Notes under the pieces: generated by a model
Seen by the model: only the letters and a program-made list of their open reading frames with translations
Database searches by the model: none
Told to the model about the DNA's origin: nothing
In this document: one piece after another, positions 14,885-52,334 of the stretch
Numbering within the stretch: position 1 is the stretch's first letter
How the letters are laid out: the number at the start of each line of letters is the position of its first letter
Made by a program: the position numbers and the translations under genes
Virus record (IMG/VR): IMGVR_UViG_3300046002_004029
Coordinates: 3,576 to 67,575 of that record
From: a virus
Strand: one strand, 5' to 3'
Length of the DNA stretch: 64,000 bases

Positions 14885-14888
14885 ATAA

Positions 14889-15912: not shown

Positions 15913-16040
15913 CTAATAATAAACGCTATAGTAAAAGTTTTTGCTATACACAACCGCTTGCTAATCAATTAATAATAAAATAAATGTTTACAGTTAATGT
16001 AAGTTTCAGCGTAAACACGTAATAATATAAATATAACCAA

Positions 16041-16472: not shown

Positions 16473-16473
16473 T

Positions 16474-16917: not shown

Positions 16918-16944
16918 TAATATTAATATATAAAAACAAATAAT

Positions 16945-17169
16945 ATGAATGTAAATTTAATTGAAAAACTAGAAGTAAACAGTAGCGCTATCTTTGAAGT
17001 TGCTTACTATCCTAATGTTGAAAGATTATTTATAACTTTCAAAAATGGTAGAGAATATGAATACTTAAATGTACCTATTCATATTATGTGTGGCTTACGT
17101 GAAGCATCGTCTAAAGGTAAATTTCTTAACAAGTATGTTTTAGCACAATACAGGTTTAAGAAAGTATAG
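16945..17169 (+). CDS. KTSC domain protein
   Basis: VNSSAIFEVAY...LFITFKNGREYEYLNVP...ASSKGKFLN. Confidence 0.9.
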   Translation: MNVNLIEKLEVNSSAIFEVAYYPNVERLFITFKNGREYEYLNVPIHIMCGLREASSKGKFLNKYVLAQYRFKKV

Positions 17170-17180
17170 TTGCTATACAC

Positions 17181-17449
17181 GGTCCTTGCTATTACTTGGG
17201 TGAAATAGTCGACTCAGGGTGCAGTGAGTTCGTTAAACAAGAACTGTACAAAATGTGGACACTCGGGGTTACGTGAAAATTAACCAAGCCTTGCTAGCTG
17301 GTTGTAACTGAAATATGGGATAAAGAATTTAACCGGTCCTCGGATTAACAAAAGAACTAAGTACTGGGCTAAATGTATCCTGTTCATTTAACGGAATGCC
17401 GGCATGTTACAACCGACGGGTTTTGGGGTTCGATTCCCCTTTTAGTTCC
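17181..17449 (+). ncRNA. Structured non-coding region ending in a tRNA-like element (17354-17449)
   Basis: GAACTAAG/TTTAGTTC stem, GGGGTTCGATTCCCC T-arm and a GGTTGTAAC/GTTACAACC long-range complement. Higher GC than the flanks. Confidence 0.5.
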
Positions 17450-17462
17450 TAAATTAAATATC

Positions 17463-17900
17463 ATGAGTAGGACAGTAAAACAACAGTACAGAAAATCTAG
17501 AAGATTTGATAAGCAATGCCGAAATAATGGCTGTTGTAGTTATTGTAAGGGTAATAGACTACATAGTTCAAATACAAGAATACAAGCAGCGTCTTACAGT
17601 CTGAACACGATTGTAAAATGATAATATAAATGTAACAAAAACAATTTAATTATGAAAGTAACATTAAGGTTTACATTACCAGAAGATGAAGCACAATATA
17701 ATCAATATTCTAAAGCTCCAGATATGGCTTATGCTTTATGGGATATAGCTCATAATCTTAAAAAAGAATGTATTAGATTAATAGAGGCTGATGCAAATGG
17801 TGGCCTAGCATATGACGCATATGATGGCGTTGAAGTAGTATTTACTCAAATATATAATATATTAGAGCAACATAATATAAACACTGATGAATTAATGTAG
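17463..17900 (+). CDS. Two small hypothetical proteins (17463-17621, basic and Cys-rich; 17652-17900)
   Basis: MSRT...CRNNGCCSYCKGNR motif, and an 82-aa ORF after the promoter at 17594. Confidence 0.55.
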
Positions 17901-22839: not shown

Positions 22840-23604
22840 ATGAAAAGTTATAACATACCAAATTACGTAAGATATAAAGAGGATATTAAACAAGCAAACA
22901 AAGATAGTTTGTCAAATAATTTCCATTTATACGATAGAAATAAATTAATTGTCAAATTCCTTCCATTAGTAGAGAACATTGCTAAGAAATTTTCTACTAC
23001 AACTCAAGCATCAGGAGTATTAGATATTACAGATCTTATACAATGCGGGTCTAAAGGTTTAATACAAGCAGTTGATAAAATAGAATGGACTACAATAAGC
23101 GAATCTATTGATCCAGAAAAAACTATTAAGTCATTTCTATCAAAAAGAATAAAAGGCTCAATTAGAAGAGATATAGACATCCATAGAGGCAGTATAAAGA
23201 TCCCGGAACACAAACTAAATGAGATTAGAAAAGACAATGGTCAAGACCACTCGATGGTTGCAATGTTTTTTAACTCTATATTCTTAAGTATTGATGAACA
23301 ATTAGCTGACGAAGATGACGACCATATGTTGTATCAAATTCCAGATCAATCTGAACCATATAATATTCAATTAATGAATATCTATTTAACTAGTTTATTA
23401 AAAAAGCATTTAGATGATAAAGAATTTGAAGTATTGCGATTAAGTTATGGATTAGATTGCGATAAACATTCCGCAATGGCAATTGCTATAAAATTGGGAA
23501 TTGAAGGAACTAGTTCATATGTGCGAGTTTCTGAACTAAAAAAACAAGCAATTAAAAAGTTAGTTGACAACGTTGAGCCCTCCCAAGTCCTTGATTACCT
23601 ATAG
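22840..23604 (+). CDS. Phage sigma70-family (FliA/SigF-like) RNA polymerase sigma factor
   Basis: Region 2 is LPLVENIAKKF...DLIQCGSKGLIQAVDK...RIKGSIRR. Region 4 is EFEVLRLSYGL...IAIKLG...RVSELKKQAIKKL. Confidence 0.9.
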   Translation: MKSYNIPNYVRYKEDIKQANKDSLSNNFHLYDRNKLIVKFLPLVENIAKKFSTTTQASGVLDITDLIQCGSKGLIQAVDKIEWTTISESIDPEKTIKSFLSKRIKGSIRRDIDIHRGSIKIPEHKLNEIRKDNGQDHSMVAMFFNSIFLSIDEQLADEDDDHMLYQIPDQSEPYNIQLMNIYLTSLLKKHLDDKEFEVLRLSYGLDCDKHSAMAIAIKLGIEGTSSYVRVSELKKQAIKKLVDNVEPSQVLDYL

Positions 23605-32711: not shown

Positions 32712-35700
32712 TTATTTGTTCTTATTTTTTTCTGCTATATCCCAAATCATTTTTCTTTTTTTTGCTTGAGCCCTTTTTTCTGTTTTTAAAGAATCTTTAT
32801 ACACTTTTTTTTCTTCCAAAGTCATTCCGCGAAGGCGTTCCCTTAGCTTTATTCTTTCTGCTTTATTTTTTTCAACAGTTGCGACTGAACTTTCAGTTTT
32901 TCTTACTTCTTTAGCTTTTGCTTTTATTTCAACATCCGCTTTATTTTCAATACCAATAGTAAAAGGATTCCATCCAAGGCCAACCATAACTCTTTGCCAA
33001 GCTTCATTTTGCGAATTTAATGCTTGAGATACATTTTCAATTTTGGAAACTAATCTATCCATTGGAATATTTGTACCAGCCTCAACTAACTTTCCAGTTA
33101 TAGAATACATAGGCCCTAAATGTACCCTACCATCTTGCATAATACTCCACCCTCTTTCTTTTATAAGATCTTTATCATATTTAGTAGATTGTAACCCGCT
33201 ATATATTTTTCTAAGTTTGGATCCAATTGGTGGAGATATATTAGCTGCCTCTAGAACCACTTTTGCGTAATCTGCTTTGAACTTTTTGTCTTTTTCATCT
33301 AAGTATTTTAAAGCAACATTTTTTAACGTAGCAGCAACGCCTCCATAAAAACCAGTACCCCTTAATATTGTATCTAATACTCCATCTGCGGCATCTATTA
33401 TTTTACGTTTTTTATCTTTAGCTTTAGCTTTAGCTTTTTCTTCATCCTCTTCATCATCAGAACCAAAACCAACAGCAAATAATCCATTTTGCAAAGCAGA
33501 GAACATTATATTTTGTATTGCTAAATAATAAACAATCTTAGCCATATGTGTTTTAGCATCTCCTCTACCATTTTTAAGATCCAAAAAGGATTTTTTAACA
33601 ATTCTGGATTGTTGCATTGCAGTATTTTGGAATGTAAGCAATAATCTACCTGCGCCACTTGCTTGCTGTTTTGATATATCTCTTGGATCACCAGATTGTT
33701 GCGTTTCATCTGATACTTTAGTAAAGTCATTCCAAGCGGCTTTTTCAGCTTCTGCATCAGACATGCCTTCTTTTAAATAAGACTTAATTCTATTCCTATA
33801 AAATGATGCTCCTCCTGAAGCAATCGCAAAACTATCTGCTAATTGCGTAGGTGTATACCCTATTTTTAAAAGATAAGACGTAACCGCAACAGCTTTGTTT
33901 TTACTACCAGCAGCAGAATTAGCTATTTCAGCGGCAGCAACATCATCTTTTAATCCGCCTCGCCTTTCTTTCATTTTATCTGAATTCCATATATGAGCAA
34001 AATCTTTCCAATATTGTGGTTGATCTGCGAATCTTGCCGCGGCAGATACTGGATTATTATCTCTTAAATTCAAGAAATTGACAGCTCCGATTAACTGTAG
34101 CACAGCAGATCTTGTATTCAAAAACATAATAGTTCCAGTAGAGCCATTAATCCAATTACTCCAAGCGCTTGTTTCTTTGTCTTTTCCTGAACTTCTATTT
34201 TTACCAGATGTCATTCTATATACAACATCCTCGATGGCTTCCCTTACATTTGTCCCATATACAGCTTCAATTTTATTCATATTAGGGCCTACTAAACTGC
34301 CTTTATCCCATTTGCCAAATATCTGTTCAACATTAGCAATAAATTCTCCTAAGAATTTTTTTCTGCCATCGCCTTCTGTTATGTTGTGTAAATCAGCAAT
34401 AATTGTATCGGCATCCCAGTGCTTAGTTGGCTCAATCCAACCTGGACCTTGGCGGCCCATTACAATCAACCCATTCTTAAAAGCATTAAGTTCAGGATCA
34501 TCTGCAACTAATTGTGTTAATTTTGTAGCATCACGCTCTGATAAACCGGGAATATCTATGCCAGCCTCGGTCCACATTGCTACACGGATGGCTTGGTCAT
34601 ATGTAAAATCTTTATCGGGCGTTAGTGTTTCTATCTTTTTTCTAACTTCTGGAAATGCGTTTGTTAATGCTTTATATTCTCTTTTTATAGATTGTCTAGC
34701 TGCGTCCATTAGGTCGTTGCCATTTGTATAGGGCTTTAACAATGCATCGTTAAAAAACTTAAGATGCTCCTCCCCTTGTTTGCCTTTTCCAACAAAGTTG
34801 TATAGCAATAATTCAAAGTCAGCAGCGGACGGCGGAACATAAAAATCGAATTTGTTTTTAGTTGCCCCTCTTCTCCTGGCTACAATGTCCGAGAACTCTT
34901 TATAGTGTTCCATTCCGCTAGTCTCCTCAATTATTTTATTAAACTCAGGACTAAGTGTTTTACTCTCCCTTACTTTTTCTGCATCAAAAGAATTAGAAGC
35001 AATCTCGGAATTTTCTATATTTTGTTTTATTTCAGTATTACGCTTGTATTCTGAAAATAAGGCATTGTTAGATGTAGCGTTATCTACATTATATTTTGAT
35101 TTTTGTTTAAAATTAACTAAGGTAGGGAATACTCTAATTCTATTATAATCTCCTCCTCTAACTATTCGAGCTGTTAATTTAACATCACTAGAAAGCAATG
35201 GAACCCCCAAATTTAATTTATCTTTACCTAAAGCAAACAATCCGTGTTTACCTATATTAATATAGTGGACATTTTTTCCATTATATAACTGTTCTATTAT
35301 TTTTTGATCGGTAGCAATAGAAACTGTTAAACTTTTTTGGAAACCTTTTGTTTTTAGTATTGAGTGTTGCTCTTTGGTAACTTTGTATGGCCAAGAATCC
35401 GTTTTTACACCCAGTTTTTCTGCCTCTTTTTTATATTCTTCAAATTTATCAAGTTTACTTTTTAACAAATCTATTAATTCATTAGAAATATTTAACTCTT
35501 TTGTAGGAGAAAATGTATTATTATCAAAGTTAGCATTAATAGTAAAGCTACCCATCTGAGCTAAAGCATTTAATTTAACTTCTATATTTAGCAAATCTTT
35601 GCCCAATTGCAAGTGTATATCCCCATCCCCAGTAGAATCATACCCTTTTACTTCTTTAGTTAATACTTTTACGCCTTTAATTTTTAAAGCTTTTAATTCC

Positions 35701-38700
35701 TTTAATATTATTGACTCATAAGCAACGCCACGAATACCAGCTTTAATTTTTTGCATTTTAGCAACAAGATCAATATGGTCTTCAAATACGTGCTGTTTAA
35801 TTTTATATCTATCCTCCTCGGGGATGGAATTTAATATGTTTTCAACTTCTAAGGACTCGATGCCGTATTCATCGGCGGTATGAAATAATTTGGACGAAAT
35901 GGCATTAAAGTCTTTTGTTGGCATTGATAATTTAACATTACCTCTTTCTACTTGGCGGGAAACTTCAATAGCCACGTCATTAACTAGCTCAACGCCCAAT
36001 CTTTGTTGATTAGCGGTAAATGCTTCATAGATTAATCCTTCATTATTTAGATCATCGGTAATTATATCAAATGCAGATTCTTCTGAGATAGCTTTAGCTA
36101 AAGATTCTTTTCTGCCTCTTAGTGGGTTACCATCTGGTCCAATAACCTGGTTCAAAAATTCTTCGTTTGAAATATTATTAGCTACATTAGGTAATCTTCT
36201 CGCTAACTCATGACCTGATGTTCTACCGGCTTGATCCGTTGAAACGCTCTCTCTGTCTATGGACTTACCAACCCATTCGGGGAAACTTACCCATCGGCCA
36301 TCAACTCTTTTTTGAACGGCAATAGGCATTCCTCCTTGGCCATCTTTACCCATAAGCCAAGTAGTTGTCATATTTTCAAGAACATATTTTTTATTCTTTA
36401 ATAACCAGTTTTTTAATTGGTTATCTTTTTTACCGCCCATTGCGGTCTTAACGTCAATGTCAATTTGTTTACCAATTTCGTCTCTAATTTCAGCAATTAG
36501 GGGGGTAACGGTTTTATTTAGCGAAACAGGTTCGTTTATTTTACTTTTAAGAGTTCTAACAACAGTCAGTATCTTATTATTGATTGTTTTTAATACATCT
36601 GGTTCAAAAACATTTGATTCTAATACATTTTTATACTTTGGTTTTTCGAGCGCATTTACAGTCATATTTTGATCTGCAGTTTCTGTGGCTTTCAAGCCTA
36701 CTTCTTCTGCAGCATCTTTCATAAACTCTGTGCCTAATACTCTTTTCGAGGCGGCAATAGCCCTCATAGGTAAATATTTATTTATCCATGCTGCTAATGG
36801 TATTCCGCTTTCTGGTTTATATTTAGTAATTAAATCTAATATACCACCTGTTCCGGTTTCTATTTCATCAGTAAGTAATTCTCTATCAAATCCAGGAGCA
36901 TCTCTTCTTTTGTCAACAATCTTTTTTGTAATGGGTTTGAACAAACTAATTATTTCAGCAGCTCCTTCTTTGCCTTTCTTATCATAAATTTGTTGTACTT
37001 TGTCAGATGATAAAGTACCTCTCTCATTTTTTATAATTTCTTTTACTTCATCCTCTTCTGTAACCTCTTTACTTTTTGTAGGTTCGGTAGTTTTAGCCTC
37101 AGATTCTTTTTTTATAGCAGACTTTATTTTTGCTTCTAAATTTTGTTTTTTAGGCAAATATTCAGCTTCATCCATATCGCCATAACCTTCATCATACTTT
37201 TCGTTAAGATCCTCAAGTTCTTTTTTTAGTTCTAAAGATTTTGATTCTTTTACCTCTTTAGTTTCTGAAATCTTGCCTTCAGTTCCTAATTTTTTAAATG
37301 CTTTTGTAAATTCTCCTTTCTCAAAACTTTTATTATAATCTCTTACAAAATCAAATACGTCTTTTCCATTACCAAAATTAACGTTTTTTATACCGATATT
37401 TTGTAATACTTGCCTAAGTAAATCTCCAAGTTTGATAAAAAATGTTTCATTATATTTTATATCGCCTTTAGACAAAGATTCAGATAATAACGGTAAAGTC
37501 TCTTCTAACATATTACCTTTAGCTTTGGCTAAGCTAGCATTTGTTTTTTCAACTATGGCATCATGATCCTCTTGGGATACTTTTCCTTCTTTTAAATTAG
37601 ATGCGTTAGTCCCTAATATAGATTTTGCTTTAGTATTTTGTTGTTCAAATTCCAATTTATAACCATTATACCGATGCTTAAATTCCGATCTATTGAAAGC
37701 TTCTGTACCTAAATAATCCTCAATATGCCTATATAACGACTCTCCAACTTTAGCTTGCATTTCCGGGTTTTGACCAATAGCTTTATTCACCAATTTATGC
37801 ATAAATTCGTGCTGACCTGTAGTTATATTAAAACCCATAGCAGCTTCTTCTTGATTTACAATTAAAGCCTGCTTCCCGTTGTTTAATGTAACAAATAACC
37901 CATTACTATCCTCATATTTATTAATATCCTCCGGTGACAACTTTGTATTATTTTCTAAATATGTTCTAACATCATTTGCTGTTTTTAATTCTGGAATTTC
38001 TGTTTCATTACTAAGACCCAATTTTTCAACAGCAACTCTTGCCTTATTAACGTCGTCAGATATATTAGCCTCAATGGCCTCCTCATTTGTTAATTTGTCT
38101 TTATCACCGGTTCTTTTTGCCGCGGTAGCTTCAACTGATTCTCTGGCAATGCCTGTTAATTGAATATTTATTTCAGCAATTCTTTCTAACTGTGGGGTAG
38201 TAAGTTCTTTATCTCCAACATGTTTAACTATTCTAAGAAGATCATTTTTCTCTTTAGATAATTGTACCGCTTCTGGTAATTTAGATTCTAATAAGTTTAA
38301 CGGCTCTAGTTTTTTGCTTATTCCATAGGTTGTAGCAAAATCTTTTTTAATTTGATTACCTTCATCCTCTGTCATATCCCCTTTATTTATAGCATCTTGT
38401 ATTTGATTACTTAATACTTTAGGAGCGCCTTTTATTTTTGTTATATTTATTTGGGCTTGTGATACTGGTGTATTTGGATTGAATGCTTCTAACATTGAGT
38501 TGGAAACATCCGATTTTAACTCTGAATTTACTCTATATAAAGCAACGCCATCTTTAAATCCCGATATACCTTTAGCAATAGTTATAGGTGATCCATATAA
38601 ACCGCCGCCGGCAACGCCTTGAATAAATGAATCTAATACATTATCAAATGGTTTTTTATTGTCAATTAAATTTTGGGTTATTGTAGTAGCAACTTCTTCA

Positions 38701-39971
38701 ATTCCTTCGCCAGCCATAGCAACTGGCATACCGAATTTTTTAAGCGCCGTTTGATACGCGAGAACTAAACCATTCTTCATTATAGAAGCACCTTGATCTA
38801 TACCCTCTTTTTTTATTATATCTTTATACACTTTACCAATACTACCTTCCCCTATAGATGAAAACACGCTTTCAGCCGCGGCCATACCAAATCCACTTAG
38901 AACTTGAGACATTTCAGAGTCCTCTGGATGTTCCTCTTTTTGTTGCCTAATATTAGGCCCAGCAAATAATGTTGTAGCTCCAATTGCTGTTTTAGCAATG
39001 CCCACTTCAGCTCCTCCTAACATCATCCCAATACTTACCGGAGCACTTTCTGCAATCCCGCTGCCAATTAATTTAAAAGCATCAGTCCAATTTCCATCAG
39101 CCATATTTTGAGATATGCTAGTTGAATCATAATTGGCATTGTCATATATATCGTTTTCTTTACCTATTCTTTTCTGTTCATTTATAAAATGATCCATTAC
39201 AGGGTTAGATGTACCGGTTTGAGTTTTAAATTTTTCGGGGGATGCTTCTAAATCTTTATTACCGGTAGCCCAAGCAATAGCATTTTGCGGCAAAGCAAAG
39301 AAACTATATGTAGTTTCAGGAACAGAAGCAAACATCTCTCCAACATAATTCAATCCTTTAGCAAGTCCGCTTAAACCACGTTCCGCATATGTTTCATCTT
39401 CAACTGATTTTTTCTTATTATTAGCTTTAGATAATAACTCCATAGATTTTAATTCTATGTCCGATGTCGAAAGTTTGTAATCCTCACCTTGCTCATATCC
39501 TTTTGATAGTAATGAAACTGCGCTGTCATCTATAGATTGTTTTTCTTCTGGTGATAAATATTTATAATTAAAAGTAGAAAAAGTGTCAAATACATTAGAA
39601 ACTGTTTTTTGTTCTTCTTCTTTTACTTTAATGCCGCTTGTTTTGATATTCTTTTCGCCTTTTGTATAAAATCCTTTAACAGAATCCAGTGTTTTTTCTT
39701 TAGCAAACTTTTTTGCATCAAATTCAATTTCGGGTTTTTGAACAACTGATTTGCTAACTGGCATTTTTTTCATTTTTTCTACTCCAAGTACGTCTATTTC
39801 CTGTGCCTTTGGAAATACCTCTTTTTGTTTTGGTACTGTTTTTTGTTTAGGTCGTAATGTTAAATTATTTTTCTTAATATACTCATTAATAGTCAACCCG
39901 TTCTGTAAAGCACGGGTTGTTATCTCGTTTTCTGGTAGTGTTACTCCATCTGTATCTACGTATTCAAACAT
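32712..39971 (-). CDS. Giant internal virion/ejection polyprotein (zincin + sigma region-2-like + PD-(D/E)xK-like)
   Basis: 2419 aa and last of three ejection-type genes. HEFMH at aa 721, sigma-like segment at about aa 1003-1075, nuclease-like segment from about aa 1415. Confidence 0.8.
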   Translation of the reverse strand: MFEYVDTDGVTLPENEITTRALQNGLTINEYIKKNNLTLRPKQKTVPKQKEVFPKAQEIDVLGVEKMKKMPVSKSVVQKPEIEFDAKKFAKEKTLDSVKGFYTKGEKNIKTSGIKVKEEEQKTVSNVFDTFSTFNYKYLSPEEKQSIDDSAVSLLSKGYEQGEDYKLSTSDIELKSMELLSKANNKKKSVEDETYAERGLSGLAKGLNYVGEMFASVPETTYSFFALPQNAIAWATGNKDLEASPEKFKTQTGTSNPVMDHFINEQKRIGKENDIYDNANYDSTSISQNMADGNWTDAFKLIGSGIAESAPVSIGMMLGGAEVGIAKTAIGATTLFAGPNIRQQKEEHPEDSEMSQVLSGFGMAAAESVFSSIGEGSIGKVYKDIIKKEGIDQGASIMKNGLVLAYQTALKKFGMPVAMAGEGIEEVATTITQNLIDNKKPFDNVLDSFIQGVAGGGLYGSPITIAKGISGFKDGVALYRVNSELKSDVSNSMLEAFNPNTPVSQAQINITKIKGAPKVLSNQIQDAINKGDMTEDEGNQIKKDFATTYGISKKLEPLNLLESKLPEAVQLSKEKNDLLRIVKHVGDKELTTPQLERIAEINIQLTGIARESVEATAAKRTGDKDKLTNEEAIEANISDDVNKARVAVEKLGLSNETEIPELKTANDVRTYLENNTKLSPEDINKYEDSNGLFVTLNNGKQALIVNQEEAAMGFNITTGQHEFMHKLVNKAIGQNPEMQAKVGESLYRHIEDYLGTEAFNRSEFKHRYNGYKLEFEQQNTKAKSILGTNASNLKEGKVSQEDHDAIVEKTNASLAKAKGNMLEETLPLLSESLSKGDIKYNETFFIKLGDLLRQVLQNIGIKNVNFGNGKDVFDFVRDYNKSFEKGEFTKAFKKLGTEGKISETKEVKESKSLELKKELEDLNEKYDEGYGDMDEAEYLPKKQNLEAKIKSAIKKESEAKTTEPTKSKEVTEEDEVKEIIKNERGTLSSDKVQQIYDKKGKEGAAEIISLFKPITKKIVDKRRDAPGFDRELLTDEIETGTGGILDLITKYKPESGIPLAAWINKYLPMRAIAASKRVLGTEFMKDAAEEVGLKATETADQNMTVNALEKPKYKNVLESNVFEPDVLKTINNKILTVVRTLKSKINEPVSLNKTVTPLIAEIRDEIGKQIDIDVKTAMGGKKDNQLKNWLLKNKKYVLENMTTTWLMGKDGQGGMPIAVQKRVDGRWVSFPEWVGKSIDRESVSTDQAGRTSGHELARRLPNVANNISNEEFLNQVIGPDGNPLRGRKESLAKAISEESAFDIITDDLNNEGLIYEAFTANQQRLGVELVNDVAIEVSRQVERGNVKLSMPTKDFNAISSKLFHTADEYGIESLEVENILNSIPEEDRYKIKQHVFEDHIDLVAKMQKIKAGIRGVAYESIILKELKALKIKGVKVLTKEVKGYDSTGDGDIHLQLGKDLLNIEVKLNALAQMGSFTINANFDNNTFSPTKELNISNELIDLLKSKLDKFEEYKKEAEKLGVKTDSWPYKVTKEQHSILKTKGFQKSLTVSIATDQKIIEQLYNGKNVHYINIGKHGLFALGKDKLNLGVPLLSSDVKLTARIVRGGDYNRIRVFPTLVNFKQKSKYNVDNATSNNALFSEYKRNTEIKQNIENSEIASNSFDAEKVRESKTLSPEFNKIIEETSGMEHYKEFSDIVARRRGATKNKFDFYVPPSAADFELLLYNFVGKGKQGEEHLKFFNDALLKPYTNGNDLMDAARQSIKREYKALTNAFPEVRKKIETLTPDKDFTYDQAIRVAMWTEAGIDIPGLSERDATKLTQLVADDPELNAFKNGLIVMGRQGPGWIEPTKHWDADTIIADLHNITEGDGRKKFLGEFIANVEQIFGKWDKGSLVGPNMNKIEAVYGTNVREAIEDVVYRMTSGKNRSSGKDKETSAWSNWINGSTGTIMFLNTRSAVLQLIGAVNFLNLRDNNPVSAAARFADQPQYWKDFAHIWNSDKMKERRGGLKDDVAAAEIANSAAGSKNKAVAVTSYLLKIGYTPTQLADSFAIASGGASFYRNRIKSYLKEGMSDAEAEKAAWNDFTKVSDETQQSGDPRDISKQQASGAGRLLLTFQNTAMQQSRIVKKSFLDLKNGRGDAKTHMAKIVYYLAIQNIMFSALQNGLFAVGFGSDDEEDEEKAKAKAKDKKRKIIDAADGVLDTILRGTGFYGGVAATLKNVALKYLDEKDKKFKADYAKVVLEAANISPPIGSKLRKIYSGLQSTKYDKDLIKERGWSIMQDGRVHLGPMYSITGKLVEAGTNIPMDRLVSKIENVSQALNSQNEAWQRVMVGLGWNPFTIGIENKADVEIKAKAKEVRKTESSVATVEKNKAERIKLRERLRGMTLEEKKVYKDSLKTEKRAQAKKRKMIWDIAEKNKNK

Positions 39972-42768: not shown

Positions 42769-44448
42769 TTAGCCTGCATATGTAGAACTAACTGCCCACA
42801 ACTCTTTTTTTCCGCCAACATCAGTTATATTATCAGTTGATATTGTTACAGTTGCATATCTACCTTTTATTCCAGATATTTTATCACCCCAGATTATCTC
42901 GCCATTTGTAGGTTGGCTATTATTTATTAGGTTTGCATAGTATTTATTTTCATTTCGAACGAAACCAGCATAGTTGATTGGGGGTATTAATATAGCTGGG
43001 TATACACTACCATAATCATCATATGAACCACCTAAATAACTTCTTACCAATGCAATACTATCTTTAGTCATTTTCCAATTACCAAAAGTACCGTTTATAT
43101 CCTGCCCACGCTGGTCGCTATTAAAACTATTCACTTGCCATCCACTATCACCCTCGTAATTAACTGTTTGATATACCTTCGATGTACTAGATTCTTGATT
43201 AAATATAAAAGTTATAGTAGATGGACTAGCTATATTATAAAATGTGCCGGCATTTGTATTGTAATAACCGTTACTGTAATGCTCATACAGGTTGTTATGT
43301 TTAAAACTGTAAAATTTATTTTTAAGACTAGTAATAAATGTAGGTTTATATGTAAAATAACTTATCCATCCCGACACAAGCTCATCGAAAGATAGGGTAT
43401 TATAGTAATCGGAACTATCTATCCACGTTGGGCTTGACTGAATTGACAACGCATAGTTCTTGTTATGTATGTCATACCCACCTATAACTTTACTGCTAAA
43501 TAATGTAGTAAAAGATATTGTATCACCTAATGTTACACTACACCCTGGGTTTGATAAAATTATATTATTACCAGATTTATTTCTAACATATACTCCAGGT
43601 ATTACAGCATTATTTACATTTACACTCATACCAATCTGTATATTAGCAGTTTCGCCTGTAACAAGGATGCTGGTTAATACAGTATTAGTTTCGGAAACTA
43701 TAGTATCTATAATAAGTTCTCCACTATCTGGTAGTGCTGTTAATTGATCCCTAAAGTAATTAGACATCCCATAAGATGAAATTTCAGTAAGTCCATCCTG
43801 TGACAACCTTAACACCACATTACGATATTTATCTGTAAAGTATTTTTGATAACCATATGTAGCAAAACTTTCCGGGTTTTTACTTATGCCATAATTACCA
43901 GAATAAGCTTGGATAGTGCCTATCACGGCATCGGATGTGGTCATTGTTCCGCCTCCCTCTGCTGAATAGATTATATTTTTATCTATTGGCGCTCTACTCA
44001 CTTTATTCTCTTGTAATACTATCAAGTTCGTATCTTCAGCAAATAACTTTTGTATTGATCCATTAGCAGGATCTGTACTTTTGGTTATATCTTCTCCAAC
44101 AGAAAACTGATTTGAATTATTTACACCGGTTCTAGAATTAAATATTCCGGAATATATAAGGGAATTAAACCTATGTTGCTGGTTAGGATTTGACTCTACC
44201 AAATATGCTTTAACTCCTAAATCAACTTGAGTATTATTATACCCACCGTGTATTCTAGATTCTTCTATTACCCATTGGTCTATAGCAGCAACCGAGGCAT
44301 CACCTGGAAATGCAGGAACACCTTCTATTGGTATTACCGCATTATATGGATAACCATTAGGCCAAGTAGCTACTTCTGGTGCTCCTGTTTTTGATACCTG
44401 TTTTAACCAAAACGAATTAAAGTAGGATACTTCTATTACTGTTGCCAT
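42769..44448 (-). CDS. Tail stabilization/nozzle protein (C-terminal-type part)
   Basis: YGISKNPESFA, YFTD, RLSQDGLTEISSYGM..YF and ENKYYA, typical of crAss-like stabilization proteins. Confidence 0.75.
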   Translation of the reverse strand: MATVIEVSYFNSFWLKQVSKTGAPEVATWPNGYPYNAVIPIEGVPAFPGDASVAAIDQWVIEESRIHGGYNNTQVDLGVKAYLVESNPNQQHRFNSLIYSGIFNSRTGVNNSNQFSVGEDITKSTDPANGSIQKLFAEDTNLIVLQENKVSRAPIDKNIIYSAEGGGTMTTSDAVIGTIQAYSGNYGISKNPESFATYGYQKYFTDKYRNVVLRLSQDGLTEISSYGMSNYFRDQLTALPDSGELIIDTIVSETNTVLTSILVTGETANIQIGMSVNVNNAVIPGVYVRNKSGNNIILSNPGCSVTLGDTISFTTLFSSKVIGGYDIHNKNYALSIQSSPTWIDSSDYYNTLSFDELVSGWISYFTYKPTFITSLKNKFYSFKHNNLYEHYSNGYYNTNAGTFYNIASPSTITFIFNQESSTSKVYQTVNYEGDSGWQVNSFNSDQRGQDINGTFGNWKMTKDSIALVRSYLGGSYDDYGSVYPAILIPPINYAGFVRNENKYYANLINNSQPTNGEIIWGDKISGIKGRYATVTISTDNITDVGGKKELWAVSSTYAG

Positions 44449-44484
44449 TATTTAATAATTACTTGTTTTTTAATATATTTAAGT

Positions 44485-47400
44485 TTAGGTTGTTAGGTAA
44501 GCATCTACTATAAAGTCATCATCACTCTCTTCTATTGTAGTAACGGTATAAGAGTAGTTTATAGCGCCTGTATTATTTTCATAGTGAACCGTAGATCCTG
44601 GAATAATGTCTCCATTTTTTACCAAACGCACGGTTAATATTTCACCAAATCCTAATATTTCCGAAGTATAGAATCTACCTATTAATGTTGTATCGGGCAA
44701 AGGCCATACTATTGCTTTAATTTGGAGATCCAGTTTTGCATCGTAGTTTGTCGTAAGTACCTTGAAGTACAATGAAGTAAATGTGCTTCTCAAAAAACTT
44801 GCATTTGCCGTAAAAGATGGATCATCTATAGTTTGTAACGTAAAACCAAATGTTTTGTTTTGTGTTAACATTGCATATATAACTTCAAAATCATATAGTT
44901 CATATAACCCTCCAGCATCTTGTAGTTTAATATATATTCTATAGGGGGTTGTAGATACCACGGTAGAACTATTACTGACTATACCTAACCCTGATATTGA
45001 AAACCCTCTAAGTGTTGAGTCGTCCAAACCGCCAAGAGTAACATTTACTATAGACCAGGTTAGGCCTTGAGTTTGCATAGATAACAAAGCTAAAGTATTA
45101 ACTCCATTTATACCGTTAAAATCATATACTGTAGTTACACCATTTTCTAAGGAAATTGTATTACCACTAATTTTATTTGTTATTAAAGGAACAGTATTTG
45201 ATAATGACCCGGTTAATTGTAACTGTGTTGTAGTAGAATTTAGTACATCATAACAGTCAATGTTAAATGTAAAGTTTCTGGCATTTGCATCAAATGAACT
45301 TGTACTACCATAATAGAAAAAATCATCTGTAAATAATTTAAACTTTGATGGAGTAAGAATAGACGGGGTTACTGCATAGTTAAACAACGTAAACTTGGGA
45401 CTTATATCAGCTCCATTACCATCTATAACAGATGCTAAAGTGAAAACGATTTCAGTACCAATATTCTCACCTGAGGAGGATACGGTAGATACATTATCGA
45501 TAACCGTAGTGCCAATGTTAAAATTTTCATTTTGTGAATAAGGAGTACCTATTTTTAATCCAACTGGGCCAACAAATGTTTGACTTACTAGTCTATTTAA
45601 CTCTGAAATTAATCCAGTTGTACTAGTCTCAAAATATATATCTAATAAAGATTCTACAGGTGATGTTTCATAAATCCCTAACTTAATATTGTAACCAGCA
45701 GCAGCACTAGCGAGTTTTCCAATAGGTTGTTTAATAGATACTCTACCTATCAACGGATTTGTATCGCTTTGATAAAATTCAGGATATGCTAGGACAGTCC
45801 CTAATTGTTGATTATAATTTGTATCCGCTAATGTTGATATAGACACTACCGTATCTGCTAATATTCCAGGATAGTATTGTATACTGTATATATCTGTAAT
45901 AATTTCTTGCGGAGTAACTCTGCCGTACATTTGTACACTACTTCTATATTGCCTTTGGTCAGGGCCTACTTCTGTTAAGTCTCTGGGCACTTTGTTTATA
46001 TTATCATTAAATAAAACTATATTTGCTATTTCATCAGTTTCATCTAAAGTAGGTGTAGTACTATATGGATAACCATTAAGAATACCTGGGAGGTACACAT
46101 TATAGTAGTCTTGCTCAGTCTGTCTTACAACTATTTTATAAGAATACCAACCAAGTGGATTAGGTAGATTTACAGTCAATGTTAATGTCGCGTCAGTAGT
46201 TCCGCCCGTTACTTGTACTATATCACTATTTTGATAGCCAGTTCCTGGACTATGCACAGCAACGGTAATTAATCCACTGCCATCACTAGTATAGTCAACA
46301 GTAAGTCCAGAGCCAGAACCGCCGGTACAAGGTACATTAGTAGCGTCTATTGTATAACCCACGCCGGCTGTTAAAATAATTGCATTGTCAACACTATAAC
46401 TTGCGTCCTTATATATACCAGGATAACCATTTATAGTTGATATCGGCGGTATTGCAGAACTTGATCCTTCGGCTGTGTCAAATAATATTTTAAGAGAGTA
46501 ACCAGGCCAATTTAAAGCATTTGTACCAGCTGGAATATACGGAACATATATAGTTGATCCACCATATAAGGTGCCAGCATCAGTGGAGCCATTATCTTTA
46601 GATGATAATATTACAGAAGATTGTCTACCAAACCTATCGGATAAAACAATCCCTACTTGGTAATTTCTATTCTGTTTTAATGTTGAATTAGGATATTCTA
46701 TTTGAGTATATGCTTTGTTTTCTAATGGATCAACCGTTGGTTTTACACTATAACCTACTCCATAATTTAAAGATATAGGCGGTGAGTTTTTATCAAAAAA
46801 GTTTCCATAAACTATTCTATTACTAATTATTTCTTGAGTAAGAGACCTAACAGGTACTTTATCATATACTCTGATTGTTTGACTATCTGATATAGTCCTA
46901 AATGGTTTGGTTGATATATATTTAAAATCATATACATTTTTTACTGTATTACCAGCCATTTTACTAAGAATTTGTTGTATTGTAATTGTCTCTACAACTT
47001 TAACATTAGTACTATCTGATTGTTTATATAATATATCAACCTCAGACACGTGTAGGTCTGTTTTAGGATCATTTGATGGAAATATTATATTTAGTATTAC
47101 TTGTGATACGTTATTCTCCATAAATGATACTATGGTGCTTCTATATGCATTAGTAGCATCATCTGGTCCAAAGTATCCTTGTTGTTTTGGTATAAAACAT
47201 ATTTGTGTAAATGGTGCAAATATAGAGTATTCGCCATCATCAAACTTAAGCCTATAACTAAACCTAACTAACCTTTGCTGTAAATATTGTGGATCACCAC
47301 CCCAACTAGCTAGATAATCTGGATTGTCTACAGAAGGTATATCAGCAAATCCTTCATCAAGATATTCTTGGGATGGGTTTGACATAGTGGATTCTTTCAG

Positions 47401-47979
47401 AATACCGTCTTTTGCATTTAATAATTGTATGGCAGTAATCGGGGCATATTTCGCTACAGATATATGGTCTTCATTAAAATAATAGTTAAGGTTAACAGCG
47501 GCAGTGTCAATATTTATCTTTCTAGGTTGGTTTCTATTGTCCGTCCAAAAAAGTAAATTTTCAATAACATTCATACCGGTTATTGGACTATTTTTAGAAA
47601 AGTTAAGAAAATACCCTTCAACTAATTTAGTAGTAACATTTGTATCTGTATTAATTCTATATATATAACACTTAGCTGTTGTAGGAGCAAAGTTAGCTAA
47701 TCCTGAGGCAGAACTATCTACATAATTTGTTAGAAATATATAAAAACAACTTTTAGATAAATCTGGATATTGTCCTATAACATCCAGATTACTAATTGTT
47801 GTTTCTAAAGATTTTACTAAAGTATTGCCTAATACAGTTCCTAATGCTCCAACGTCAGAACCTTCTGCTCTACTTATTGAAATATTTTGAGCGCTTCTAT
47901 ATTCTCCACTAGGAACCAACCTATCATCTAGGTCCTGGTTCATTTTAGATTGTACAAAATTATTTTTAATTTCAATCAT
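44485..47979 (-). CDS. Tail stabilization/nozzle protein (N-terminal-type part)
   Basis: KMNQDLDDRLVPSGEYR.A.N, LLFWTDNRNQPRKINI, RIVYGNF and NRNYQVGIV. Confidence 0.8.
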   Translation of the reverse strand: MIEIKNNFVQSKMNQDLDDRLVPSGEYRSAQNISISRAEGSDVGALGTVLGNTLVKSLETTISNLDVIGQYPDLSKSCFYIFLTNYVDSSASGLANFAPTTAKCYIYRINTDTNVTTKLVEGYFLNFSKNSPITGMNVIENLLFWTDNRNQPRKINIDTAAVNLNYYFNEDHISVAKYAPITAIQLLNAKDGILKESTMSNPSQEYLDEGFADIPSVDNPDYLASWGGDPQYLQQRLVRFSYRLKFDDGEYSIFAPFTQICFIPKQQGYFGPDDATNAYRSTIVSFMENNVSQVILNIIFPSNDPKTDLHVSEVDILYKQSDSTNVKVVETITIQQILSKMAGNTVKNVYDFKYISTKPFRTISDSQTIRVYDKVPVRSLTQEIISNRIVYGNFFDKNSPPISLNYGVGYSVKPTVDPLENKAYTQIEYPNSTLKQNRNYQVGIVLSDRFGRQSSVILSSKDNGSTDAGTLYGGSTIYVPYIPAGTNALNWPGYSLKILFDTAEGSSSAIPPISTINGYPGIYKDASYSVDNAIILTAGVGYTIDATNVPCTGGSGSGLTVDYTSDGSGLITVAVHSPGTGYQNSDIVQVTGGTTDATLTLTVNLPNPLGWYSYKIVVRQTEQDYYNVYLPGILNGYPYSTTPTLDETDEIANIVLFNDNINKVPRDLTEVGPDQRQYRSSVQMYGRVTPQEIITDIYSIQYYPGILADTVVSISTLADTNYNQQLGTVLAYPEFYQSDTNPLIGRVSIKQPIGKLASAAAGYNIKLGIYETSPVESLLDIYFETSTTGLISELNRLVSQTFVGPVGLKIGTPYSQNENFNIGTTVIDNVSTVSSSGENIGTEIVFTLASVIDGNGADISPKFTLFNYAVTPSILTPSKFKLFTDDFFYYGSTSSFDANARNFTFNIDCYDVLNSTTTQLQLTGSLSNTVPLITNKISGNTISLENGVTTVYDFNGINGVNTLALLSMQTQGLTWSIVNVTLGGLDDSTLRGFSISGLGIVSNSSTVVSTTPYRIYIKLQDAGGLYELYDFEVIYAMLTQNKTFGFTLQTIDDPSFTANASFLRSTFTSLYFKVLTTNYDAKLDLQIKAIVWPLPDTTLIGRFYTSEILGFGEILTVRLVKNGDIIPGSTVHYENNTGAINYSYTVTTIEESDDDFIVDAYLTT

Positions 47980-47984
47980 CTATA

Positions 47985-49229
47985 TTAGTGTTTTATCCAT
48001 TTAGATTGCCCCCTTAACACTTGAGTTATTTCTTCAAGTTTTATATTTGACAATCTTATTTTAGTATTTCTTAATTTAGCACTTCTTTCTTGTTTCAACC
48101 TCTGCACAAGGTATTCAGGTTGATTAGCGCGTGTTGCAATTATGGCGTGTAGTATATGAGCATACATAGCTTCTTCCGCCATTTTCGGCACTCTAGTGTC
48201 CCTGTCATAAGCCAACCCATCAGAAACATATTCTAATACAATCAATAACCCAACAAGTTGACTAGAAAAAGAGATCTTACCTTCCCTGTCATTTATTGAA
48301 AACCATCCATTTATATTAGCATACTGTGGCTCCATGCCAAAACGTTTTTGCGAACTCCATTGACTGCCTGTCCCCCAATCATAACCCCACCAGTCCAATC
48401 CAGCATTATAATCAAGCGTACTGTAATATCCGTTAATCAATGTGCTTTTCGCTGTATCCCATCTTTCTTCTGTTAACGATGTCCCCTCAATATTGTCATT
48501 AAAATTTCCCTGCGTAGGCACTCCTTTATTGTCTTGTACAGGATTTTCATACGGGTTAATTGTTAAATTATTTGCCGGGTAGATAGGATGTTTTATCCCT
48601 AAGTTATCAATCCAGGCAACCTTAACGTAGTTAACATAGTCTTGTGGTAATATAACGCTTAATGAGGGCGGTATTGTTAGTTCCTGAGATTTTATACTTT
48701 TTAATGTATCATAACTAAACTCTTGTAATCCACGTTTGGCGTGAAACATTATGTCGGTTCTTTTTACGTCAGGTATTAACTTCCCGACTCCAACATAAGC
48801 AACTATAAAGTTATTTATAATATCGTCTAAAGTAATGTAAGCATAACCTCCATAATTATTTTCAACAGTATTACCGTAAGCTTCTCTATCGCCATATTCT
48901 CCTCCACTTAAAATCTTTAACTGGACAACAATATTAGAATATTGTTCAATACTACCTGTTATTTTTATTGTATTATTTACTACAGTATAAGGCAATATAT
49001 ATTCTTCATAAACCATACCATTTTGAATAGGAGTACTCAAATATAACTTAAAGTTATTCAATGCATAATTTATATCATTAGGGTCCCAACTACCAAATAC
49101 TAAATCAGTATTGAAAGTAAATGTCCACGACTTACCCAATGCAGTGATAGATTCATCAAAGAATCCTTGCGCACCGGCGTAATATTGTCTATTTGTTTCG
49201 GTAATTAAACCTCCATTCGGGATTGGCAT
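47985..49229 (-). CDS. Tail ring/adaptor protein
   Basis: LPQDYVNYVKV and LEYVSDGL, located between the capsid and nozzle genes. Confidence 0.7.
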   Translation of the reverse strand: MPIPNGGLITETNRQYYAGAQGFFDESITALGKSWTFTFNTDLVFGSWDPNDINYALNNFKLYLSTPIQNGMVYEEYILPYTVVNNTIKITGSIEQYSNIVVQLKILSGGEYGDREAYGNTVENNYGGYAYITLDDIINNFIVAYVGVGKLIPDVKRTDIMFHAKRGLQEFSYDTLKSIKSQELTIPPSLSVILPQDYVNYVKVAWIDNLGIKHPIYPANNLTINPYENPVQDNKGVPTQGNFNDNIEGTSLTEERWDTAKSTLINGYYSTLDYNAGLDWWGYDWGTGSQWSSQKRFGMEPQYANINGWFSINDREGKISFSSQLVGLLIVLEYVSDGLAYDRDTRVPKMAEEAMYAHILHAIIATRANQPEYLVQRLKQERSAKLRNTKIRLSNIKLEEITQVLRGQSKWIKH

Positions 49230-49235
49230 ATTTTA

Positions 49236-49955
49236 TTAGCTTTTAGAATTAATCATTTCTGCTTGCGCTTGTTGTGCGGCTACTTGTATAAATTGGTAGT
49301 CTTGTATTATTATACCCATATACATCAGTACCTTAATAATAACTGTTGGTTGTTCAGACACATCTAATTCAAAATTAGTAGATCCAGCCGCGTCATATAT
49401 ATATTGCCCAACAGATCCTTGAGTAAAAGCCCATTTTACATTAGATGGTTTCCTTATATAAGATGCTGTTATATTAGACACTATGGTTTTTGGATATACG
49501 TATATATTAGGAATATCAGAAGTTGTTGAAATTCCGCCTTCTCTTTCGTATATATAAACTGGATATGTTGTTGTTGGTTTTGTTAACTTAGATTTATTAA
49601 TATATAATATATCATTTTTTTGTACCCTTTGTAGTTCAGTATCATCATTATATATGATGGTTCCTATTCGATACATATTAGTTGGTAATGAAAAATAACC
49701 AGACGCATAAGTGCATGCACCGGTTGTTTTAAATGGAGATATTTTGTCGTCTAAACTTTTTTGTCTATCGGCATATTCTGAATCATTTTGAGTAACCCTT
49801 AATTGTTGGTTAAGATCTTCAAAATAAGACTCTAGTATTTCTAATTGTACTTGAGTACTTATCTTACCAAATTCTTCAGGTGTTATATAACCACGTTGCT
49901 CTTTATTAAGTATTAGCAAAACAGTTTTATATACCCAATCTACATTTATTGCCAT
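49236..49955 (-). CDS. Tail ring/head-tail connector protein
   Basis: NKEQRGYITPEEF and YIRKP, plus gene position. Confidence 0.7.
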   Translation of the reverse strand: MAINVDWVYKTVLLILNKEQRGYITPEEFGKISTQVQLEILESYFEDLNQQLRVTQNDSEYADRQKSLDDKISPFKTTGACTYASGYFSLPTNMYRIGTIIYNDDTELQRVQKNDILYINKSKLTKPTTTYPVYIYEREGGISTTSDIPNIYVYPKTIVSNITASYIRKPSNVKWAFTQGSVGQYIYDAAGSTNFELDVSEQPTVIIKVLMYMGIIIQDYQFIQVAAQQAQAEMINSKS

Positions 49956-49978
49956 TTTCTATATTTATTATAATATTA

Positions 49979-50014
49979 AGGTAGATACTGTAGGTTTATT
50001 TACAATATCTACCT
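49979..50014. promoter_or_regulatory. Intergenic hairpin in the leader of the tail operon
   Basis: AGGTAGATA...TATCTACCT, just downstream of an ACGTAAT promoter-like box (50025-50031, minus strand). Confidence 0.5.
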
Positions 50015-50032
50015 ATATATTAGTATTACGTA

Positions 50033-50797
50033 TTATTTTAATTTTTTCTCTATAGACTTAAAGATTTCTACACCTTCATCAGTCTTGAAAAATACAGCCA
50101 TCGCTGAATATGGATTTTCATCAAATGGCACTGTCATTAATTTCTTATCATTAGTTCCCCAAGTAAATGTGCGTTGGTCTTGCGATAATTTTATAATATT
50201 CATTTCACTTGCTTTAATTGCAATATTACGAAGATGTACATTTTCATCACTGGCTAATTCTAAGAACAAACTAGGGTTTCGTTTAGAGAATATTAACAAA
50301 TCTCTTTTTATCTCCTTAGAAGTCATTTTAGATACCTTAGATCCAAGTTCTACTCTTAATATTGCTTCTGCTTGGTCAACATCCATTGTTGATGCAGCAT
50401 TCATAGCTTGTAATTGCAATTCTAGATCATCTAATTCATCTACTGCTACGGCAACAGAATCAAATTCATAGTATTTATTATTTAGCATTGGGTGGTATAA
50501 AGACAATAACTTCTGTAAGTTTTGTTTTGCTTTAGGTACCGTTAAAACCCCATCTTCAAACATAATATGGCCTAATGTAGCTTCGCCTTTTTGAGCTTCC
50601 ACAAACGGACTATTTTGATTAGTTGCGTATCTTAATTCTTTTTGTTCACCGGTACTCTCGTCAAACCATAATAATGGAAATCTTCTTGAGTGTCTAGCGG
50701 AAATTGTATATGTTAACGGACTATAATCGCCGGTTAATAAATAAGTTCTATCTTTTACTTCCCAAACTGCGGAATTGTCTGTTTTTTTTGTTGACAT
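50033..50797 (-). CDS. Conserved protein downstream of the major capsid gene
   Basis: 254-aa ORF. Function not recognised. Confidence 0.7.
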   Translation of the reverse strand: MSTKKTDNSAVWEVKDRTYLLTGDYSPLTYTISARHSRRFPLLWFDESTGEQKELRYATNQNSPFVEAQKGEATLGHIMFEDGVLTVPKAKQNLQKLLSLYHPMLNNKYYEFDSVAVAVDELDDLELQLQAMNAASTMDVDQAEAILRVELGSKVSKMTSKEIKRDLLIFSKRNPSLFLELASDENVHLRNIAIKASEMNIIKLSQDQRTFTWGTNDKKLMTVPFDENPYSAMAVFFKTDEGVEIFKSIEKKLK

Positions 50798-50825
50798 GAT
50801 ATGATATAATTAATTGTTTTATTTA

Positions 50826-50861
50826 AAATAAAAATTACCCCCACTGATATAGCAGGGGTAA
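50826..50861 (-). terminator. Intrinsic terminator after the major capsid gene
   Basis: TTACCCC...GGGGTAA stem with a U-tract on the minus strand. Confidence 0.7.
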
Positions 50862-50879
50862 GATTTACATATTCTAATA

Positions 50880-52334
50880 CTATACTGTGGCAGTAAACAA
50901 TACGAAGTTGTTTGCTCCTTGTACGCATAGACATCTTTCAGACAAGAAGTTTACCTCCATTGCATCAAGATCGGAAGTATAAGCACCTCCAACAGATCCA
51001 GTTACCCAAGACTTCATTTTTCTATCGTCAGCCTGTGCAGCTCTATAACGAACGTGAAGGAATGGTCTACGAATATTTGTTCCTAGGATTTGATCGTATA
51101 CAGTAGATGTTCCGGCAGGAACCAAAATACCATCAATGCTTGAATGAGCCATTGCACCACGAGTGGAAGCGTCATTTAAATATTTCCAGTCTGTTTTGTA
51201 GAAATCATAAGATCCTCTACGGAAACCAGAAAATCCAAGGTTAAGCGCCATCTCAGATGAATTTTCAAACAAACCATAAGCAACACCACCATTTGCGCCA
51301 GCTGATAACTGAGCAAGCATATCGTCAAAGTTAAGCGAAGTTTGACGGTTCAAGAATAACATATTTTCTTCAATAGCTCCTTGAGTATCTAAGTTTTTTA
51401 AGATAGTATCAAATTCTACTAATCCACCAACTGCATCAAAGTTATTCAATACATTACCTCTGGATTTAACAGCAGCAAATAGACCTTGAGTACCTTTTTT
51501 ACCAGCGGTAGCAGCAGCTGATCCTGTACCCGCTAATTCACCTTCAACAACAGCCATTTCAAGGTAATCCTCAAAACGCAATCTTGTTTCAGATTCAGCT
51601 TTCAAATACCAGTAGTATCCAGAAGCACCTTCTTCAGTAGCAATTTCTACCCATCCAATCTGAGCCGTATCAGATCCATTAACAACATATTTGTTACGGA
51701 TAATAATAGGGGAGTTGCTAAATTGAGTAAATGTTGGAGTAACGCTATTATAGTTATCATTAGCTAATGTTGAACCTTTAGCATATTCAGAACCATAAAC
51801 GAAGATTTTCAAATCATCCATACCATCTGTAAATCCAGCAGCAGCTAAAGTAGCAGCAGTATAGGGAGCTACAGTTAATGCCCCTGTAGTAACATTACTT
51901 GCGGTAACAATTGCTTTTACTTCTAATCCAGTGGCTGGATTTATAATAACAATAGTCTGGTTAATTGAAATAACATTTTGCACAAAATCTTTTGGAAGCG
52001 CAGGTGTTAAATTAACTGGTATAAGCAATGTATTTGCAGCAGCACTTACTACATCAACACCTACATAAGCAACGTGTAATCTATTTTGTTCTGACCAAAT
52101 AACTTGATCGGAAGACATAGGCATTTCTGCTCCTACCATACGTAAGAAACCAGAAAGAGTTCTATTACCATAACGTTCTACTTCTTGTTCGTAGATCTCA
52201 GGTAAATATTGTTTAGCAAAAGACGAAAAGTCAGGATTTGCTGGGTCTGTAAAATTTAAGTAGTTAGTACTTAATGCTTGTTGTCTTTGAGAAGGCGTAA
52301 TGCTACCAAAAGACGGCGAAACTGCGTCTGCCAT
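50880..52334 (-). CDS. Major capsid protein
   Basis: 484 aa, after portal and scaffold, followed by a terminator. Contains W.EQ.RLH and GTQGLF motifs. Confidence 0.85.
   Translation of the reverse strand: MADAVSPSFGSITPSQRQQALSTNYLNFTDPANPDFSSFAKQYLPEIYEQEVERYGNRTLSGFLRMVGAEMPMSSDQVIWSEQNRLHVAYVGVDVVSAAANTLLIPVNLTPALPKDFVQNVISINQTIVIINPATGLEVKAIVTASNVTTGALTVAPYTAATLAAAGFTDGMDDLKIFVYGSEYAKGSTLANDNYNSVTPTFTQFSNSPIIIRNKYVVNGSDTAQIGWVEIATEEGASGYYWYLKAESETRLRFEDYLEMAVVEGELAGTGSAAATAGKKGTQGLFAAVKSRGNVLNNFDAVGGLVEFDTILKNLDTQGAIEENMLFLNRQTSLNFDDMLAQLSAGANGGVAYGLFENSSEMALNLGFSGFRRGSYDFYKTDWKYLNDASTRGAMAHSSIDGILVPAGTSTVYDQILGTNIRRPFLHVRYRAAQADDRKMKSWVTGSVGGAYTSDLDAMEVNFLSERCLCVQGANNFVLFTATV

Follow-up and report, generated by a model that had tools for sequence, protein, structure and literature searches.

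In a 64-kb window of the 67,575-bp IMG/VR virus record IMGVR_UViG_3300046002_004029, a large minus-strand open reading frame (ORF; 32712-39971) encodes a giant protein of 2419 amino acids (aa) without a single cysteine, and ends the block of virion genes as its last and largest member. We found that this protein contains a helical domain predicted to adopt the fold of sigma-70 region 2 (sigma2), which may enter the host cell with the phage DNA and act there on host RNA polymerase (RNAP). The protein is most likely a giant modular ('polyvalent') protein, with a conserved [VI]-K-x-S-[K/Q/M] linker motif between its modules.

Starting from the N terminus, and with all coordinates on the minus strand, a variable region recognised by its conservation profile (aa 1-639, 38055-39971), which includes a Gly/Ala-rich hydrophobic stretch marked by hydropathy (aa 301-330, nt 38982-39071), is followed by a zincin-motif region (aa 640-906, 37254-38054) whose motif residues are conserved in a 26-sequence alignment. 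The first boundary motif, VKESK (aa 907-911, 37239-37253), leads into a linker of charged composition (aa 912-985, 37017-37238, isoelectric point (pI) 4.8), then into the sigma region 1.2/2-like helical domain (aa 986-1081, 36729-37016, pI 9.4), an acidic linker predicted to be disordered (aa 1082-1107, 36651-36728, pI 4.1) and a second conserved domain, D2 (aa 1108-1345, 35937-36650), which is mostly helical with a small beta hairpin. The second boundary motif, VKLSM (aa 1346-1350, 35922-35936), closes a conserved ERGN[VI]K-x-S string and precedes a variable cargo region (aa 1351-1666, 34974-35921) with a PD-(D/E)xK-like pattern, GDGD ... EVK, read from the sequence near aa 1448-1467, while the third, VRESK (aa 1667-1671, 34959-34973), precedes an all-helical C-terminal core marked by the conservation profile (aa 1672-2360, 32892-34958).

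The initial annotation of this DNA had aligned a stretch of the protein with sigma-70 region 2 by eye; the segment is real, corresponds to aa 1007-1071 (nt 36759-36953), and every detail of that observation was confirmed. The alignment could be reproduced, but it is not statistically significant alone, as all sequence tests stayed below threshold. We therefore give the structural evidence first. From a 55-sequence alignment of aa 960-1360, assembled from IMG/VR loci cut by coordinate, AlphaFold2 (AF2) produced a model with a mean predicted local distance difference test score (pLDDT) of 77 and a predicted template-modelling score (pTM) of 0.55, in which the first ten residues (aa 960-969) lie below pLDDT 50, residues ~11-120 form the helical domain, residues 122-148 form the disordered acidic linker (pLDDT <50) and residues 150-385 form the second domain (pLDDT ~85-93). 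Comparison of the modelled domain by VIA-align returned sigma chains in 50 of the 50 matches listed, and a helical sigma2 fold covering regions 1.2-2.4 is thus predicted for aa 986-1081, as the initial annotation had expected. Foldseek searches of the PDB with the AF2 model gave nothing at E 0.001; below that threshold, sigma chains made up 14 of the 46 matches listed and had the highest probabilities (0.09-0.30). A search of BFVD also gave nothing at E 0.001, with phage sigma factors among the weak matches. The best BFVD match (A0A218ML07_1; probability 0.99, E 0.12, 249 columns) comes from an uncultured virus and is a segment of 1475 residues, itself uncharacterised; UniProt may already hold a remote member of the family in this entry.

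Sub-threshold sequence matches converged on the same place. Searching PDB sequences with a domain profile gave RpoS at E 0.14-0.31 and the SigE N-terminal domain at E 0.31, and the RpoS alignment was gapless, placing aa 1033-1062 onto RpoS 116-145 with the common pattern D-x-I-E-x-G-x-x-G ... K-[FY]-x-P-x-x-G. Comparison by hhalign with a 26-sequence alignment of the phage's own sigma, which is encoded elsewhere in the window, aligned region 2.2-2.3 with P 0.019 and the whole domain, over 85 columns, with P 0.056. The string 'FDPxK[NQ]..L..[FY]I' was kept at the same position in more distant family members, and all of the sub-threshold alignments landed on the same region 2.1-2.4 positions. 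In the conservation profile the domain was under much stronger constraint than its flanks, and nowhere in the protein is conservation higher than in the module. We regard the sigma2-like fold as very probably real.

We next consider a predicted partner. The domain (aa 977-1087) was co-folded with residues 1-420 of beta' from Flavobacterium johnsoniae, used as a stand-in host, and scored 0.67, 0.67 and 0.66 in three runs, against 0.00 for the best of three controls; 58 of 80 solved complexes pass this mark, compared with 2 of 110 mismatched pairs, counts that are only rough here, an alignment of our own having been supplied. The runs agreed in at least 87% of contacts, with a partner pLDDT of 79. 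The predicted interface joins beta' 288-319, together with residues 42 and 46, to aa 1001-1005, 1027-1049 and 1077-1080 (residues 25-29, 51-73 and 101-104 in partner numbering), its central stretch, aa 1027-1049, being the helix aligned with sigma region 2.2. We expect the clamp helices to lie at beta' 288-319, by unaligned analogy with E. coli 260-309. The co-fold with a Bacteroidota beta' N-terminal fragment that the initial annotation had proposed thus passes relative to controls, and does so through the region-2.2-equivalent helix. Since sigma-beta' complexes have been solved many times over, the pass shows likeness rather than binding by this particular copy; in the model the region-2.2-like helix docks on the beta' clamp helices, a result that may reflect memory of those solved complexes.

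Alternatively, the helical domain could serve a structural purpose within an internal virion or ejection protein and have no role at RNAP, its sigma2 likeness being an old, now functionless inheritance or a convergent helical bundle. We consider this improbable: it is sigma chains, not assorted bundles, that fill the structural match list, the sub-threshold alignments agree on their positions, all three co-fold controls stood at 0.00, and the domain is far more constrained than the sequence on either side of it.

The second domain was modelled jointly with the sigma2-like domain and gave no clear fold. Two candidate assignments were rejected: for an ADP-ribosyltransferase (ART; R ... TTT ... 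E, seen by eye) the residues lie in helices of a confident model that has no ART beta core, and for a Pol-beta nucleotidyltransferase (G-x3-DxD) they likewise lie in helices of the confident model. No part of the family is more conserved than D2, in which 32 residues are invariant over 55 sequences, and this hints at an additional specific role, for example in DNA recognition.

The family to which the giant protein belongs is large. A word-indexed search with aa 900-1400, in which 8000 candidates were scored, returned at least 1019 proteins at E <=0.001, those among the 120 matches listed being 1451-3352 aa long, and a HMMER search of 1.84 billion representatives with aa 960-1360 matched 453 clusters at 50% identity (388 at 1e-10, 251 at 1e-30), giant proteins nearly throughout. 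The carriers are 60-68 kb phage contigs related to phages of Flavobacteriia. No Pfam family matched the whole protein better than E 0.31, and whole-protein tblastn against 50,697 phage records gave no match. Alignment of 41 full-length sequences, scored as mean identity to the query in blocks of 40 residues, revealed two conserved cores, aa ~960-1340 (59-84%) and aa ~1680-2360 (51-88%), while most of the N-terminal 640 residues and aa 1360-1680 were variable (14-35%). The first core consists of two units, because many distant relatives align only at positions ~135-392 of the query (aa 960-1360) and a few only at ~1-185. Among 80 related loci, tblastn found aa 1-120 in only 6, the zincin region in 49, the C-terminal core in 66 and the nuclease-like part of the cargo region (aa 1380-1560) in only 4, so that aa 1351-1666 looks like a swappable cargo domain.

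The zincin motif that the initial annotation had reported, HEFMH at aa 721-725 (nt 37797-37811), was confirmed as the only HExxH in the protein and is conserved family-wide, with H, E and H each present in at least 90% of 72 full-length sequences. Eight residues, N706, H721, E722, H725, E824 (nt 37500-37502), D871, F875 and Y879, are invariant in 26 diverse members, and the sequence holds both an HExxH and a conserved third ligand, the downstream Glu E824. The zincin region matched no peptidase family in Pfam and no PDB sequence; 2 of the 26 members weakly matched Peptidase_M78 (E 0.022).

Each of the three module boundaries carries one match to the pattern [VIL][KR].S[KMQRI] (aa 907, 1346 and 1667), and the protein has no others. 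Across 41 aligned homologues the boundary Ser is kept in 41, 41 and 38 sequences and the Lys in 35, 41 and 33, with Arg in three more at the third site; in the 55-sequence alignment of aa 960-1360, the Lys and Ser of the second motif (K388 and S390) are nearly invariant. Further copies (QQA..KFS) flank extra cargo inserts in some homologues, and the pattern averages 3.1 occurrences per protein in 120 proteins versus 1.3 in shuffles. Judged by sequence, these boundary motifs fit site-specific processing of a polyprotein. Cutting at the first two boundaries would give aa 910-1346, a cysteine-free fragment of 437 residues and 48.9 kDa made up of the charged linker, the basic sigma2-like domain, the acidic linker and D2. 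Such cleavage may take place, the protein's own zincin being a candidate protease. For the zincin domains of polyvalent proteins, autoproteolytic release of domains has been proposed by Iyer, Burroughs, Anand, de Souza and Aravind (2017, PMC5512222).

The position of the gene points indirectly to the virion, and the Gly/Ala-rich hydrophobic stretch at aa 301-330 is a further indirect sign. On the minus strand the window carries the large terminase TerL (55973-58195, PHROG E 5e-163), the portal (53561-55972, PHROG E 1.5e-131) and genes matching 'virion structural protein' families (42769-52334), and three relatives inspected keep this order of TerL, portal and structural genes ending in a giant gene. 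By portal, the nearest cultured phages (27-51% identity among the matches listed) are Flavobacterium Elemovirus and podophages of Maribacter, Cellulophaga and Tenacibaculum; the portal matches also include one uncultured spring phage. As positional analogues of the giant protein, Elemovirus encodes gp18 (3694 aa, annotated 'structural protein'), MW202828 a giant of 3859 aa, and Cellulophaga phage phi38:1 gp101 (1691 aa), which owes its 'structural protein' label to similarity with phi18:1 gp101. An HExxH is present in Elemovirus gp18 (HEIFH, aa 1543) and in the MW202828 giant (HEFGH, aa 1615 and 2500) too, whereas phi38:1 gp101, which is also cysteine-free, has neither HExxH nor the boundary motif. 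In the MW202828 giant a '...LTKYKP...' unit recurs, near aa 1080, 1324 and 1475; a weak repeat match in this protein was set aside as a low-complexity repeat, not sigma2.

Composition agrees with position. The absence of cysteine from 2419 residues compares with ~17 expected from the mean of 26 other ORFs (0.69%); ORFs of the virion block contain 0-0.69% Cys and the terminase 1.08%, and most ORFs of the replication region contain 1.2-2.3%. From gene order and composition we infer that the protein is most likely packaged in the particle and ejected into the host. Alternatively, the protein, or at least its sigma-like module, could stay uninjected and work inside the producing cell, for example as a late-gene specificity factor made along with the virion proteins and cut from its precursor before or during assembly. 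We regard this as very unlikely, since the module lay within one uninterrupted long frame in 77 of the 80 related loci and was a separate gene in none; 881-1370 aa precede it, 1409-2079 aa follow where the frame closes inside the locus, and 20 frames run off the stored DNA while 3 have a nearby stop. Moreover, the module is cysteine-free (0 of 437 residues) like the virion block, as opposed to about 1-2% Cys in replication ORFs, and the phage already has a free sigma.

This free sigma is a sigma-70-family gene of 254 aa on the plus strand (22840-23604), which matched Sigma70_r2 at E 0.0037, short of the cut-off; its homologues carry PF04542/PF04545 and the source name 'sigma-70 family', and a PF04542 search of the phage's own record gave no match at E 10, free sigma included. 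In a database search with this protein, all 8000 candidates scored at E <=0.001, and the 120 listed were 78-100% identical and exactly 254 aa long, which suggests a very abundant aquatic phage lineage.

Upstream of the free sigma gene, the plus strand carries nine exact copies of the composite motif TTACARTCT-N17-GATAATA (7639-17626), where 0.01 are expected and none of 100 shuffles reached nine. The initial annotation had counted 12 early promoter motifs with variants, a number we could not exactly reproduce. The 17-nt spacer is invariant, an internal yACG is conserved and the motif is strand-specific. TTACAR and GATAAT are spaced 20 nt apart, more than a standard -35/-10 pair would allow, and the downstream part (TGATAATAT) looks like an extended -10 element. 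The composite motif is found exactly in 5 of 5 close relatives (2-8 copies; reversed-pattern controls 0) and in 2 of 5 distant ones; when up to two mismatches are allowed, all 5 distant relatives have it, in 12, 2, 5, 1 and 11 copies (controls 0-2). A strict Bacteroidota-type pattern, TTTG-N17-21-TAnnTTTG, had no plus-strand match in the 7-22 kb region, a weak negative only, and 9 matches overall versus 3.6 expected. The nine copies all precede the free sigma gene in the window, and the relatives checked have that gene within or downstream of the motif block; it therefore cannot start that block by itself, which favours an injected factor.

These observations lead to the reading we prefer. The giant protein would be packed into a podovirus-type particle and ejected with the DNA; in the cell, its ~49-kDa module (aa ~910-1346), whether released by cutting at the linker motifs or left tethered, would dock through the region-2.2-like helix on the beta' clamp helices of host RNAP and so take hold of host transcription at entry. 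To our knowledge these helices are the docking site of every sigma factor, so a module bound there would seize host transcription as the DNA enters. We put the probability of a virion-delivered module acting on host RNAP at roughly 45%. Within this reading, true sigma-like direction to promoters and mere tethering or competition appear about equally probable. The fullest version, in which a packed polyprotein is cut by its own zincin at [VI]K-x-S-[KQM] and the ~49-kDa module programmes host core RNAP onto TTACARTCT-N17-GATAATA before any phage gene is expressed, D2 being the DNA reader, is quite unlikely to hold in all its parts.

A number of results speak against a delivered sigma-like module. 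At the sequence level, Pfam Sigma70_r2 (PF04542) had no match in either set of family members (15 and 55) with the threshold relaxed to E 10, no sequence method reached significance for sigma, RpoS (E 0.14) tied with annexin A2 (E 0.12 and above) in the PDB profile search, and the hhalign probabilities against the phage's own sigma were just 1-2.4%. When the RpoS alignment is extended by eye, W1062 presumably falls at sigma70 Y430, K1065 at W433 and Y1066 at W434 (sigma70 numbering), so that the residue aligned with the melting residue W433 is a non-aromatic Lys. Neither sigma4 nor a region-4 helix-turn-helix (HTH) was found in the family, the latter as the initial annotation had stated, and no sigma3 was recognisable. 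As to the virion, the giant protein matched 0 PHROG families and showed no homology to any protein proven in a virion, and family profiles gave nothing significant against gp18, the MW202828 giant or phi38:1 gp101, which are positional analogues only.

The link from the module to the early promoters, which the initial annotation had drawn, is also weakened, although the motif itself is real and conserved. One relative whose sigma2-like segment is 21% identical keeps 12 motif copies (<=2 mismatches), the motif persists where the segment is only 16-26% identical, and a separate free sigma, 56-80% identical, is present in 10 of 10 relatives and could do the promoter work. A comparison of co-variation between motif and segment came out both ways and supports neither reader. 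Because the motif does not track the sigma2-like segment, all 10 relatives have a free sigma and D2 stays conserved across the relatives compared, the reader of the motif could be the free sigma, D2 or the host enzyme.

The same facts would suit a sigma2-like module that is an RNAP-docking device without promoter specificity, the motifs being read by free sigma or by host holoenzyme. Such a device could be a decoy that competes with host sigma at the clamp helices (host shut-off), or a tether that links the incoming end of the genome to host RNAP and lets transcription help to pull the DNA in. It would explain why only the core-binding half of a sigma factor is recognisable and why the predicted interface is the region-2.2 helix, and it would agree with the extended -10 resemblance of the downstream motif part (TGATAATAT) as well as with the persistence of motif and free sigma where the segment diverges. 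We still hold it to be unlikely, as the high conservation of the fused D2 suggests a specific function such as DNA recognition, and as a free sigma encoded inside or downstream of the motif block cannot on its own start that block.

The delivered module that we favour can be set beside several known systems. With sigma2 of sigma-70 (PF04542) the domain shares the predicted fold, the gapless region 2.2-2.3 match to RpoS 116-145 and the predicted clamp-helix docking; it differs in being embedded in a 2419-aa late protein rather than forming a free subunit, and in falling below every sequence threshold. Phage early transcription has two known ways, by host holoenzyme or by an injected complete RNA polymerase as in N4 and crAss-like phages; crAss-like phi14:2, for example, reportedly carries a virion RNA polymerase. 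N4 gp50 is likewise a virion RNA polymerase (e.g. PMC4496689). Both resemble the present case in a giant protein encoded with virion genes and in control of early transcription before phage expression, but they are complete polymerases, whereas here only a sigma-like docking domain that needs the host enzyme is present. A virion RNA polymerase was rejected for our protein, which has neither DxDGD, as the initial annotation had observed, nor any D-x-D-x-D, and matches no polymerase family in Pfam. T4 gp55 and phiEco32 gp36 / SU10 gp32 are small diverged sigma-like proteins that also redirect host core RNAP, although as separate genes made after infection; chain 7d7d_F of the T4 late-transcription complex was among the top VIA-align matches. 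Only one hint of such a sigma in a particle preparation emerged, a lone SU10 sigma peptide in a proteomics table where DNA polymerase and further non-structural proteins appear as well (PMC4281155).

A further parallel is with polyvalent proteins (PMC5512222), with which the giant protein shares very large multi-domain size, a place among virion genes, a zincin motif and cargo that can be swapped between orthologues: several unrelated domains are encoded with the virion genes, and cargo varies (the nuclease-like region is present in 4 of 80 loci, the C-terminal core in 66). No MPTase or LPD Pfam domain of polyvalent proteins was matched in the giant protein by HMMER; LPD23, LPD38 and LPD39 appear only as language-model neighbours (0.94-0.96). 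The main text of PMC5512222, supplements aside, nowhere uses the word 'sigma'. In the literature searched, including passages of PMC5512222, PMC7824862, PMC4281155 and PMC7881722, no sigma domain is described in a virion or ejection protein, in agreement with the initial annotation, which had known of no such case.

If the delivered module is real, it would represent a third, intermediate route to early transcription, in which only a specificity or docking subunit is delivered and the catalytic core is borrowed from the host, and it would add a new class of cargo to polyvalent or ejection proteins. A defined ~440-residue fragment, a set of motif-bearing promoters and candidate cleavage sites make all of this directly testable. 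Because the family is large, with 453 clusters and more than 1000 proteins, such a mechanism, if real, would be widespread in aquatic Bacteroidota phages.

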